Source: Botryllus schlosseri (Eukaryota). Taken from it: DNA of 64,000 nt. The DNA lies in assembly GCA_051294905.1 (NCBI GenBank), contig CM119372.1:29142001-29206000 (forward strand). The letters are read 5' to 3'. Made by a program: the position numbers and the translations under genes. The notes below the pieces were generated by a model. The model searched no databases. It saw nothing but the letters and a program-made list of their open reading frames with translations, and had not been told where the DNA came from. The first letter of the stretch is position 1, and every line of letters starts with the position of its first letter. Below are positions 10,023 to 10,040 of the stretch, in pieces.

Positions 10023-10040
10023 TCCCCGTACTGGCCACCA
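10023..10040 (-). promoter_or_regulatory. tRNA primer-binding site, tRNA-Ile(AAU) type
   Basis: Minus strand TGGTGGCCAGTACGGGGA is the 18-nt complement of ...UCCCCGUACUGGCCACCA, which I recognise as the 3' end (with CCA) of metazoan tRNA-Ile(AAU). It sits upstream of gag. Confidence 0.9.

Follow-up and report, generated by a model that had tools for sequence, protein, structure and literature searches.

Background

Retroelements are classed by the route along which their cDNA enters the genome, which is provided by a retroviral integrase together with long terminal repeats (LTRs), by a tyrosine recombinase or by an endonuclease. Target duplications of Ty3/gypsy elements are 4-6 bp long. The Caulimoviridae carry out tRNA-primed reverse transcription without LTRs or an integrase and have all their genes on the same strand; their PR-RT-RNase H is related to that of Ty3/gypsy, and one intergenic unit supplies the terminal redundancy of an RNA that is longer than the genome. 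They have plant hosts, genomes of about 8 kb, a tRNA-Met primer, no envelope and no transposase, and their integration is incidental. DIRS-like elements also have a Ty3/gypsy-related RT and RNase H and no retroviral integrase; DIRS1 has inverted terminal repeats, and a circular DNA intermediate is proposed to be inserted by a non-retroviral recombinase, in this case a tyrosine recombinase, with no target duplication.

Envelope-carrying Ty3/gypsy elements (errantiviruses, Metaviridae) of invertebrates have a gag CCHC knuckle, a -1-frame PR-RT-RNase H, a tRNA primer-binding site (PBS) and envelope-like glycoproteins, of which two kinds, F-like and gB-like, are reported in the available text of PMC13524379. 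For Merlin elements, the available text of PMC8101967 gives terminal inverted repeats (TIRs) of 24-462 bp that start with 5'-GG and target duplications of 8 or 9 bp, and reports the superfamily in ascidians; in the elements covered there the transposase gene lies between the TIRs, and none is presented with gag, RT, PBS or envelope genes. Teratorn, a piggyBac-herpesvirus fusion of 180 kb, carries virus-like genes between DDE transposon ends and uses the transposase for residence in animal genomes (PMC10175614, available text). The usual size limit of retroelement RNAs is put at about 10 kb in the available part of a review (PMC6431247).

The locus described here lies in a window of 64,000 nt, by which we mean the whole stretch of DNA that was analysed. 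The first-pass annotation had singled out an 18-nt match to a tRNA; it had missed that the surrounding element is on the minus strand, is 35 kb long, has inverted repeats and 8-bp duplications, and encodes Merlin-type transposases. We show that the 18-mer is the PBS of a retrovirus-like module (leader, PBS, gag and a PR-RT-RNaseH-Tpt1-like pol). The module occupies the 7 kb at the 3' end of a multi-copy element of 35 kb that has neither LTRs nor a retroviral integrase. At its boundaries this element has inverted ends and target duplications of the Merlin type, and it encodes the corresponding transposase itself.

With envelope-carrying Ty3/gypsy elements this element shares the gag CCHC knuckle, the -1-frame PR-RT-RNase H of Ty3/gypsy type, the tRNA PBS and envelope-like glycoproteins, but it has no LTR pair or rve integrase and instead has inverted ends and Merlin-type transposase genes. 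It also differs from them in its duplications of 8-9 bp, in a Tpt1-like domain fused to pol, in its length of 35 kb with cargo genes and in a PBS that lies 28 kb from the 5' end of the integrated copy. The DDE_Tnp_IS1595 domain, TIRs starting with 5'-GG and target duplications of 8 or 9 bp are common to it and Merlin/IS1595, whereas two DDE genes, a length of 35 kb and constrained gag, RT-RNase H, PBS and a spliced-leader (SL) copy set it apart. It resembles the Caulimoviridae in its tRNA PBS, in the absence of LTRs and integrase, in same-strand genes and in a Ty3/gypsy-related PR-RT-RNase H; a circular form is proposed for it, and in contrast to the Caulimoviridae its proposed R is the spliced leader of the host. 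Unlike DIRS elements it has target duplications and a tRNA PBS, and the ORFs that were scanned gave no match to a tyrosine recombinase. Compared with Teratorn as portrayed in the available text of PMC10175614, it joins a Merlin-type transposase to a viral partner that is a reverse-transcribing gag-pol element instead of a DNA virus, and it is much shorter. We found no described equivalent of such a hybrid of a retro-module and Merlin in the open-access PMC and bioRxiv literature.

Boundaries, ends and copies of the element

The element, its ends and its transposase genes are as follows.

3049..38265, minus strand: whole element, 35,217 bp
38266..38273, minus strand: target-site duplication on the 5' side, AATTTTTT, identical to 3041-3048
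3041..3048, minus strand: target-site duplication on the 3' side, AATTTTTT
38242..38265, minus strand: 5' terminal inverted repeat, GGTAC...
3049..3072, minus strand: 3' terminal inverted repeat, ...AGTTCC
37035..38012, minus strand: DDE transposase 1, IS1595/Merlin type (Pfam PF12762, E 9.4e-10, 39.1 bits against a cut-off of 27)
18870..19841, minus strand: DDE transposase 2, IS1595/Merlin type (Pfam PF12762, E 2.5e-15)

The element is collinear with five other copies, and its boundaries are sharp at the 3' end in 6 of 6 copies and at the 5' end in 39 of 39 other matches. Eleven copies were examined for target duplications, of which nine have a perfect duplication of 8 bp, one has 9 bp and one has none. 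The TIRs form an imperfect pair (GG...CC) with identity at 18 of 24 positions. The DDE_Tnp_IS1595 domain (PF12762) scored above the cut-off in two ORFs, for which transposase activity is predicted. A search for named relatives of transposase 1 gave five unnamed proteins only.

Such ends could belong to a very large DNA transposon of the Merlin type whose movement involves DNA only, a reading that we regard as less probable than the one set out below. With inverted ends that start with GG, duplications of 8-9 bp (10 of 11 copies) and DDE_Tnp_IS1595 genes that evolve under purifying selection, the element has everything that the definition of Merlin comprises. Nothing beyond such ends and duplications and a DDE transposase is needed for DNA-only transposition, so that the anatomy does not call for all 35 kb to be reverse-transcribed. 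The same reading is favoured by the lack of terminal redundancy in the integrated copy and by a search of the genome assembly for a head-to-tail junction of two element ends, which gave 0 hits; moreover, an RNA of 35 kb would exceed known retroelement RNA sizes and would be unprecedented as a genome. In one variant of this reading gag-pol, PBS and SL would be kept, for example, for particle formation or cell-to-cell spread of RNA; in another, a resident retro-module would renew itself through cDNA recombination, and the integrating DNA would not come from reverse transcription. Transposition as DNA leaves unexplained, however, why the supported genes are all on the same strand and intronless. 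Among the ORFs of at least 150 aa, 18 of 21 are on the minus strand, and the remaining three are antisense over gag/pol. Nor does it account for the 13 of 40 copies (coordinates paired by hand) in which the PBS follows the 5' end at a distance of just 1-15 kb; those that were checked keep a long open pol frame all the same.

The primer-binding site and its tRNA

10023..10040, minus strand: PBS, complementary to the tRNA-Ile(AAT) 3' end plus CCA

The sequence TGGTGGCCAGTACGGGGA occurs once in the 64,000-nt window, on the minus strand from 10040 to 10023, and the plus strand at this position reads as a tRNA 3' end followed by CCA. None of 100 shuffles gave a match, even when up to 3 mismatches were allowed. 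A host tRNA pattern consisting of 15 nt of the window plus the T-loop prefix was found at 80 sites with at most 2 mismatches, 10 of them exact, and ARAGORN identified a tRNA-Ile(AAT) ending at the PBS-matching sequence in 10 of 10 excised host loci. No tRNA genes were found inside the window. CCA is not part of the host tRNA-Ile(AAT) genes, so that the PBS also covers the complement of nucleotides that are added to the tRNA. The first-pass annotation was therefore right to describe a perfect 18-nt tRNA-Ile PBS that covers the complement of the non-templated CCA, and the host does have a tRNA with this 3' end. Its placement of the PBS 7 kb inside the element agrees with the measured distance of 6,974 nt from the element's 3' end (28,225 nt from the 5' end).

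In the window copy the match to tRNA-Ile spans exactly 18 nt, against 19 nt in copies with T after GGGGA. The 18-mer is unchanged in 6 of 6 aligned copies and in 22 of 24 family sites, while the adjoining bases on both sides are variable. At the homologous site the sister lineages F83 and G75 have an 18-mer complementary to host tRNA-Thr(AGT)+CCA, and host tRNA-Thr(AGT) genes were confirmed (L040, L041); the lineages H54 and I44 have other TGG-initiated 18-mers there, which are candidate PBS only. Judged by its sequence, the 18-mer is a genuine primer-binding site, and it appears to be under selection. A transposon moving only as DNA would have no evident reason to keep a tRNA complement at this one site and to exchange it for that of another tRNA.

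gag and pol

Downstream of the PBS the following features were identified.

6868..9762, minus strand: gag-like ORF of 964 codons, with a CCHC knuckle at 7324-7365
3320..6937, minus strand: pol ORF, -1 frame
6671-6679, minus strand: PR of pol, DTG
4619-5143, minus strand: RT of pol, YIDD (RVT_1, E 2.8e-17)
3983-4411, minus strand: RNase H of pol (RT_RNaseH_2, E 5.7e-18)
3353-3814, minus strand: Tpt1-like domain of pol (PF01885, E 2.1e-10, 41.4 bits against a cut-off of 26)

The catalytic tetrad of Tpt1 is Arg-His-Arg-Arg. The Tpt1-like domain matches solved Tpt1 chains (best E 1e-6), and in an alignment of 11 pol C-termini both the RH pair and the final Arg are conserved. The Arg aligned to IRANQGHS of 7kw8 is replaced by Ala, Ser, Asn, Met or Gly in 10 of the 10 that extend to this position, where the alignment is weak.

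There are at least 70 copies of pol, in identity tiers from 97% down to 43%; none of them stops short of the Tpt1-like end, and in most the open frame is 1,100-1,300 aa long. In all five copy comparisons (dS 0.13-0.47) dN/dS was 0.20-0.25 for gag and 0.15-0.20 for pol, similar to the values for DDE transposase 1 (0.11) and for two cargo genes described below, an inhibitor-of-apoptosis protein (IAP, 0.19-0.26) and a ubiquitin-conjugating enzyme (E2, 0-0.09). By these measures the retro module looks functional.

No retroviral integrase (rve) was detected at E<=0.01 in gag, pol or 18 other ORFs, a scan that covered ORFs of at least 110 aa. Five proteins from other assemblies match pol; four of the five have RT, RNase H and Tpt1 domains, and an integrase domain is present in 0 of 5. 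The next-best database matches, at about 25% identity, are Ty3/gypsy pol proteins with an integrase.

The element could in principle derive from an endogenous retrovirus or from a standard, errantivirus-like LTR element of the Ty3/gypsy group whose LTRs and integrase disappeared through truncation or rearrangement, with the PBS as a fossil. RT and RNase H are indeed of Ty3/gypsy type, and envelope-carrying LTR elements of the Ty3/gypsy group are reported in tunicates in the available text of PMC13524379. We consider this origin highly improbable, as it is contradicted by sharp ends that are not LTRs and that recur with target duplications in many copies, and by dN/dS values that place gag and pol under purifying selection. 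The duplication length of 8-9 bp, the missing rve and the presence of the integrase-less pol clade in other assemblies likewise speak against it.

A single LTR-like unit with a spliced-leader copy

Upstream of the PBS the element is arranged as follows.

11699..12460, minus strand: U3-like non-coding region upstream of the SL copy, common to family copies
11674..11698, minus strand: 25-nt spliced leader of the host in exact copy, the proposed R
10295..11652, no strand assigned: nested MITE-like TIR element of 1,358 bp, outside the retro unit
10041..10294, minus strand: U5-like leader

The first-pass annotation had reported no second copy of the sequence upstream of the PBS, and blastn of 10041-13000 against the whole window found none. 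A direct repeat of the PBS-upstream region was not present anywhere in the window, and local alignment of the leader or the U3-like region with both terminal regions, in which a hidden R was sought, gave no score above those of shuffles; the absence of an LTR pair thus stands. The proposal of tRNA-primed reverse transcription from a single LTR-equivalent at about 10041-12460 is supported in part. A genuine PBS without an LTR pair and one U3-like/SL/U5-like unit directly upstream of it agree with the proposal, but the span is not one unit because the nested MITE occupies 10295-11652. This MITE matches 39 other places at 94-97%, has an 8-bp target-site duplication (CTTATACG) and perfect TIRs of 22 nt, and is missing from copies A-E. 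The remaining segments, 10041-10294 and 11661-11673, give a distance of about 267 nt from SL to PBS.

The block 11699-11892 of the U3-like region is the part most widely shared among family copies, and we infer that 11699-12460 serves as U3. No polypurine tract was found beside the U3-like region, and since the sense strand contains as many as 39 runs of 11 or more purines, the tract at 3154-3169 is not diagnostic. Direct repeats at 369-811/38542-39018 and 1189-1595/39650-40050 (81-87% identity) were considered as LTRs and rejected; they lie outside the target duplications and one counterpart is inverted in copy A, so that they represent another family.

In raw reads the SL is found at the 5' end of many different RNAs (loose-end agreement 0.38-0.82). 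In 3,812 raw RNA reads it directly follows a sequence that we take to be the template-switch oligo. The 25-mer of the element is identical to the 'Chordata 1' SL exon (Table 1, PMC3795323). Its 22-nt core is identical in 10 of 10 copies and lineages compared, down to 54% and 44% pol identity, and the flanks of the element's copy are unrelated to those of host SL RNA genes. Across 34 family sites the first base varies (G 21, T 6, C 4, A 2, absent 1), and the next base is A in all 34. A variable first base before a fixed A would be the pattern expected of an RNA 5'-end/strand-transfer junction that is repeatedly re-made. Directly after the DNA-borne SL stands GTTTTAG, which resembles a splice acceptor. 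We infer from its conservation that the SL copy marks the 5' end of a reverse-transcribed RNA. Movement only as DNA does not explain an exact SL copy with a varying first base at 44% pol identity.

In two raw RNA runs, of which about 6% and 3% were sampled, we saw no RNA that runs from the SL through the leader to the PBS, and read depth over gag and pol was about 0. One single-cell run had sense-strand reads over 11675-12025 at a depth of about 270. We rejected these reads as evidence of RNAs ending in the U3-like region, as their loose ends agree (0.94-0.99) at four fixed points and they may come from a few unrelated loci.

Glycoproteins and cargo genes

Between the first transposase gene and the U3-like region lie the following predicted genes.

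34401..36962, minus strand: envelope-like glycoprotein 1, class I fusion protein layout
30908..34327, minus strand: envelope-like glycoprotein 2, type I membrane protein with N-terminal signal, C-terminal anchor and 10 sequons
20426..21478, minus strand: LRR protein, cargo (Pfam LRR_8, E 1.5e-75)
15786..17537, minus strand: IAP with three BIR domains and a RING, cargo (Pfam BIR, E 6.7e-60; zf-C3HC4_3, E 2.9e-09)
13585..14052, minus strand: ubiquitin-conjugating enzyme E2, cargo (Pfam UQ_con, E 6.1e-47)

Glycoprotein 1 has a signal peptide, an RQRR motif followed by a hydrophobic segment, a C-terminal membrane anchor, a Cys-rich tail and 11 N-glycosylation sequons. It had no match in Pfam, and a model built from an 18-sequence alignment (mean pLDDT 51) gave no Foldseek match in the PDB at E<=0.001. 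A protein-atlas score of 0.91 to coronavirus S2-type spikes is a lead, and among its homologues (17 of 41 Pfam-scanned) the one match was a sub-threshold Foamy_virus_ENV. For glycoprotein 2 we likewise take the atlas score of 0.79 to rhabdovirus G/herpesvirus gB as no more than a lead. None of the cargo genes has introns.

Two envelope-like glycoproteins, together with an IAP and an E2 of the host-manipulation type, would also fit an exogenous or episomal enveloped reverse-transcribing virus that uses the transposase as its integration tool, as Teratorn does, and whose chromosomal copies are dead-end endogenisations that do not serve as templates for further replication. Purifying selection on all genes despite dozens of copies agrees with this, as does an integrated gene order that is permuted relative to an SL-first RNA order. 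It is also in keeping with dS values that differ among the genes of one copy pair, which suggest mosaic ancestry. No such virus sequence or particle is known, however, and there is almost no expression in the raw RNA runs. We think it improbable that the copies are dead ends of this kind; the scheme is a version of the explanation that we prefer, set out below, and differs from it only in where replication takes place.

Gene order in related lineages

The order in G75, known from one copy, is SL-PBS-gag-pol-DDE-env1-env2. Here the end of pol and the DDE ORF overlap and are not separated by inverted ends, and the ORF after pol matches PF12762 above the cut-off; in two other copies of the 74-75% tier no DDE was found within 1.3 kb after pol. 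Neither an LTR pair nor inverted ends were found in the 20 kb of G75, where the best local alignment scored 82 against a mean of 62 and a maximum of 102 for shuffles. I44 has the order pol ... SL-PBS-gag, unbroken, in a region that also contains an inverted partial copy and so may be composite. Both orders appear circularly permuted relative to the 35-kb element, which is not explained if the element moves only as DNA.

Proposed replication and integration

On balance we think it probable that the element replicates in the manner of a pararetrovirus, by tRNA-primed reverse transcription from one U3-R-U5 unit, and is then integrated by its transposase. The replicating RNA would gain its 5' end through SL trans-splicing, and host tRNA-Ile would prime minus-strand synthesis, giving a strong-stop DNA of about 310 nt that ends in the SL complement. 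The SL would then act as R for the first strand transfer within the single U3-R-U5 unit, working as in a circular pararetrovirus or a one-LTR circle. In the resulting double-stranded DNA the inverted ends would abut each other, with pol on one side and the first transposase gene on the other; the DDE transposase that the element encodes would cut at these abutted ends and insert the DNA, which would yield the permuted chromosomal order of transposase, env, cargo, U3-SL-U5, PBS, gag and pol.

Significance

Tentatively, the element may represent an undescribed order of mobile elements or viruses from an invertebrate of the chordate lineage, enveloped and of 15-35 kb, with a pararetrovirus-like single U3-R-U5 unit in which R is the host SL and the primer a host tRNA, with Merlin ends and a DDE transposase in place of LTRs and integrase, and with a Tpt1-like, RNA-end-modifying domain in pol. 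A gag-pol module with a working-looking PBS that is consistently coupled to a cut-and-paste transposase would add a new entry route to the established list for retroelement cDNA. If the proposed cycle is correct, the element would be an animal counterpart of the tRNA-primed pararetroviruses, a spliced leader would be written back into DNA at a defined site of a mobile element, and a retro-type element would exceed the usual limit of about 10 kb several-fold. The element also shows that intronless host genes for IAP, E2 and LRR proteins can travel in a virus-like vehicle.

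A tRNA-Ile primer-binding site without an LTR pair

Within the window, the 18-mer TGGTGGCCAGTACGGGGA has a single occurrence, at 10040->10023 of the minus strand, and none of 100 shuffled sequences contained a match with three mismatches permitted, confirming the primer-binding site (PBS) observed in the first-pass annotation. The plus strand at 10023-10040 reads as a tRNA 3' end followed by CCA. No tRNA genes were found inside the window. We searched the host genome (495 Mb, 219 contigs) for the window's 15 nt plus the T-loop prefix, allowing up to two mismatches. This returned 80 sites, 10 of them exact, and ARAGORN placed a tRNA-Ile(AAT) ending at the PBS-matching sequence in 10/10 loci. 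The identification as tRNA-Ile was therefore correct, as was that of the complement to the untemplated CCA. At six of the 10 loci (L001, L002, L007-L010), tRNA-Phe(GAA) followed tRNA-Ile(AAT) on the same strand, 4-8 bp away; these neighbors may be dicistronic tRNA pairs. A host contig (G000 C12, 26.01-26.16 Mb) carried more than 45 tRNA-Ile-like 3' ends with one mismatch (GTTCGAGCCCC...) on one strand at a spacing of ~2-3.4 kb, suggesting an extensive tandem array whose units are tRNAs or derive from them.

The 18-mer was unchanged in 6/6 aligned copies and in 22 of 24 family sites, where the bases flanking it were variable. We also compared diverged lineages of the family from the same genome, designated F83, G75, H54 and I44 by approximate percent pol identity. 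In F83 and G75 the homologous site follows a conserved GGAGCT.CACT..AAA motif and reads TGGAGGCACCACTGGGAT, complementary to host tRNA-Thr(AGT) plus CCA; ARAGORN confirmed two such host genes (L040, L041). H54 and I44 have other TGG-initiated 18-mers there, which are putative PBSs. A primer tRNA swapped at one fixed site argues that the site is used, and is otherwise hard to explain. A small cluster next to a normal tRNA-Thr(AGT) gene included a tRNA-Thr-like sequence without an anticodon arm (L037) and a tRNA-Thr-like gene with anticodon ACT, called Ser by ARAGORN (L039).

A blastn search of 10041-13000 against the window gave no second copy, bearing out the absence of an LTR pair, and alignments of the leader/U3-like region with both termini gave no sign that the integrated copy is terminally redundant. 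The accompanying interpretation, a single LTR-equivalent at about 10041-12460, was partly right: an LTR-like unit does lie upstream of the PBS, but the span is composite, with a separate high-copy element in the middle. In a genome search with 10041-12460, the middle matched 39 other places at 94-97% identity (40 scored of 3,244 candidates). This nested element is non-coding, is missing from other copies of the larger element and looks like a very abundant, young MITE family. The PBS region itself has at least 39 other copies (86-96% identity), in which the sequence upstream of the MITE joins the PBS region directly.

Boundaries and gene content of the 35-kb element

Five 40-kb copy stretches were collinear with the window from ~38.27 kb down to ~3.05 kb. 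The 3' boundary was sharp in 6/6 copies, without poly(A), and the 5' boundary in 39/39 other matches. The terminal inverted repeat matches at 18 of 24 positions. Target-site duplications accompanied 10 of 11 copies (perfect 8 bp in nine, 9 bp in one, none in the last); that of the window element is AATTTTTT.

Features of the element, with dN/dS (Nei-Gojobori, window versus five copies)
3049-38265, minus: whole element, 35,217 bp, GGTAC start and GTTCC end
37035-38012, minus: DDE transposase 1 (DDE_Tnp_IS1595); dN/dS 0.11
34401-36962, minus: glycoprotein 1, 853 aa, with signal peptide, RQRR then a hydrophobic stretch, C-terminal anchor and Cys-rich tail; dN/dS 0.08-0.21
30908-34327, minus: glycoprotein 2, 1,139 aa, type I membrane glycoprotein layout; dN/dS 0.31-0.53
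20426-21478, minus: LRR protein (Pfam); dN/dS 0.18-0.28
18870-19841, minus: DDE transposase 2 (DDE_Tnp_IS1595); dN/dS 0.18-0.26
15786-17537, minus: IAP with three BIR and a RING (Pfam); dN/dS 0.19-0.26
13585-14052, minus: E2 ubiquitin-conjugating enzyme (Pfam); dN/dS 0-0.09
10295-11652: nested MITE-like element, 1,358 bp, 22-nt perfect inverted ends (CAGGCCGTG...), 8-bp duplication CTTATACG
9762..6868, minus: gag-like ORF, 964 codons, CCHC knuckle, downstream of the PBS; dN/dS 0.20-0.25
6937..3320, minus, -1 frame: pol ORF, 1,205 codons, downstream of the PBS; dN/dS 0.15-0.20

The minus strand holds 18 of 21 ORFs with 150 aa or more, and the remaining three overlap gag and pol in antisense. 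With coordinates paired by hand, the distance from 5' end to PBS was 1-15 kb in 13 of 40 copies and 25-61 kb in 24 (3 unpaired), so cargo content varies. As leads only, a language-model atlas labels both glycoproteins as viral fusion glycoproteins, the first with high and the second with fairly high confidence. The model of glycoprotein 1 has long helices at low confidence, and Foldseek returned no significant fold match for it.

Three small ORFs (12464-12898, 12990-13454, 14786-15247) have a common motif, ..AK(L/F).W(F/Y)...(R/G)(M/L)HP....., and no Pfam match; on this motif they look like paralogues, and in I44 a relative lies upstream of the spliced-leader copy. Accessory ORFs in two lineages weakly matched the C-terminal domain of the DNA-repair factors PWWP3A/B: window 23620-24114 (E 0.0045, clearly under the 27-bit cut-off) and H54 L031:1254-1853 (E 5.2e-06, 0.1 bit under it).

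Direct repeats at 369-1595 and 38542-40050 (81-87% identity, with a recurrent GGGGTCCGCGAAG-type motif) flank the element; lying outside the target duplications, they were rejected as part of it and assigned to another dispersed repeat family. Self-comparison of the window also revealed two long diverged tandem-repeat arrays, 47664-49449 and 55699-57146, unrelated to the element.

A Tpt1-like domain in place of integrase

The pol product comprises a protease (DTG motif), reverse transcriptase (RVT_1, E 2.8e-17; YIDD motif) and RNase H (E 5.7e-18). In place of integrase, its C-terminus is an RNA 2'-phosphotransferase (Tpt1/KptA) domain (PF01885, E 2.1e-10); a search of solved structures also hit Tpt1, at a best E of 1e-6. 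We take the Tpt1 catalytic set to be four residues and read arginine conservation on that basis. The RH pair and the last arginine are retained. Of 11 aligned pol C-termini, 10 extend as far as the arginine aligned with IRANQGHS, and every one of these has another residue there, in a weakly aligned stretch.

At least 70 pol copies were present in the genome, in tiers of 91-97, 80-83, 74-75, 51-54 and 43-44% identity. All extend to the Tpt1-like end, most with an open frame of 1,100-1,300 aa. Five unnamed proteins from other assemblies matched at 39-45% identity; four have the Tpt1 domain, and integrase was absent from all five. The next-best matches were ordinary Ty3/gypsy pols with integrase, at ~25% identity. 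A tandem duplication of 129 nt, its units 79% identical and spaced 135 bp, lies between protease and RT (window 5857-6120), and some family copies have a frame of 1,160 rather than 1,205 aa; the linker appears variable in length.

The dN/dS values, together with gag and pol dS of 0.13-0.47 and 0-1 disruptions per gene in most copies, make the retro module look functional rather than fossil. Derivation from a decayed LTR element would have to accommodate the low gag and pol ratios as well as the recurrence of the same non-LTR ends and target duplications in many copies, and we consider it very improbable. A dead-end endogenised version of a virus is improbable too, if less so. As dS is unequal between genes of one copy pair, the copies may be of mosaic ancestry.

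A copy of the host spliced leader upstream of the PBS

All ten copies and lineages compared, down to the ones at 54% and 44% pol identity, share an identical block of 22-28 nt, located ~267 nt upstream of the PBS in the window family and 215-400 nt upstream in other lineages. It occurs 282 times in the host genome at up to one mismatch. Raw RNA reads were aligned to window 2900-13400. In one run (X23), the block directly follows, in 3,812 reads, a sequence that is presumably the SMART template-switch oligo in reverse complement. Beyond the block, reads ran into many different sequences (loose-end agreement 0.38-0.82). Since reads carry the block at their 5' end followed by diverse sequences, we conclude that it is a spliced leader (SL). 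Table 1 of PMC3795323 gives the 25-mer GATTGGAGTATTTGGTTGTATTAAG as its 'Chordata 1' SL exon, which makes a tunicate the probable host.

Host SL RNA genes (L061-L063) and the element have only the SL in common, and neither the intron nor the sequence upstream in these genes resembles the element, ruling out a captured SL gene. The element's copy therefore probably derives from trans-spliced RNA. The first SL base varied over 34 family sites (G in 21, T in six, C in four, A in two, absent in one), and the next base was A in all 34, a pattern that a junction re-made at the RNA 5' end would give. In element DNA, GTTTTAG directly after the SL looks like a 3' splice acceptor.

Several chromosomes carry direct pairs of host SL RNA genes, spaced 1.7-1.9 kb. 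In L061-L063, TGG... follows the 25-nt SL, and a canonical GT donor would end the exon one base before the published 25-mer. Two bulk-RNA reads joined the last SL base (window 11674) to pol at 3895, shortly before the Tpt1-like domain, across 29 intervening letters; they may represent an SL-trans-spliced sub-message of the Tpt1-like part only, from a diverged copy.

Gene order across lineages

The window family has the order DDE-glycoproteins-cargo-U3-SL-U5-PBS-gag-pol. One G75 copy reads SL-PBS-gag-pol-DDE-glycoprotein 1-glycoprotein 2; its DDE ORF (57% identity to DDE1; PF12762, E 5.6e-15) overlaps the pol end, and no inverted ends lie between pol and DDE. I44 has pol, ~8 kb of ORFs without a break, then SL-PBS-gag. 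We read these as three linear permutations of a single circular order. The G75 arrangement comes from one copy, whose upstream region is unique, and two other copies of the 74-75% tier lack a DDE within 1.3 kb after pol. The I44 region also contains an inverted partial copy.

Proposed mechanism and relation to known systems

The element combines a constrained tRNA-matched PBS, gag-pol without integrase, an SL copy, and Merlin-type ends, duplications and transposases. Merlin transposons, known in ascidians, have inverted ends beginning GG, 8-9-bp duplications and a DDE_Tnp_IS1595-type domain (PMC8101967). All three are found here, but the element differs in carrying a reverse-transcription apparatus. 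Gag-pol-env content and tRNA priming are as in Ty3/gypsy errantiviruses (PMC13524379), from which LTRs, integrase and duplication size separate it. Caulimovirids and DIRS elements likewise do without LTRs and integrase, and Teratorn similarly couples a virus-like genome to a transposase. No published description of the same combination was found in open-access PMC and bioRxiv; in the eLife survey (PMC13524379), the words 'transposase' and 'phosphotransferase' do not occur.

Transposition as DNA alone, with the retro module retained for another role, would account for the ends. It leaves the swap of primer tRNA hard to explain without PBS use, and we regard it as possible but the less probable course. 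We lean, by a little over even odds, towards a hybrid of pararetrovirus-like reverse transcription and integration by a DDE transposase. The SL copy sits where the RNA 5' end would lie. Genomic RNA would start with a trans-spliced SL, and the tRNA would prime strong-stop DNA of ~310 nt. Within one U3-R-U5 unit the SL would serve as R, on a pararetrovirus-like template that is circular or has one repeat, and in the product the two inverted ends would meet between pol and the transposase gene. The DDE transposase would open this junction and insert the product with an 8-bp duplication. Counting against the hybrid, 35 kb is far above usual retroelement RNA sizes as given in PMC6431247. Raw RNA reads over window 2900-13400 included no SL-first genomic RNA or cDNA, an assembly search gave no end-to-end junction of element termini, and no polypurine tract was seen at the U3-like border. 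The element is more unusual than the first-pass annotation proposed, and its movement may join pararetrovirus-like replication to a Merlin-type transposase.
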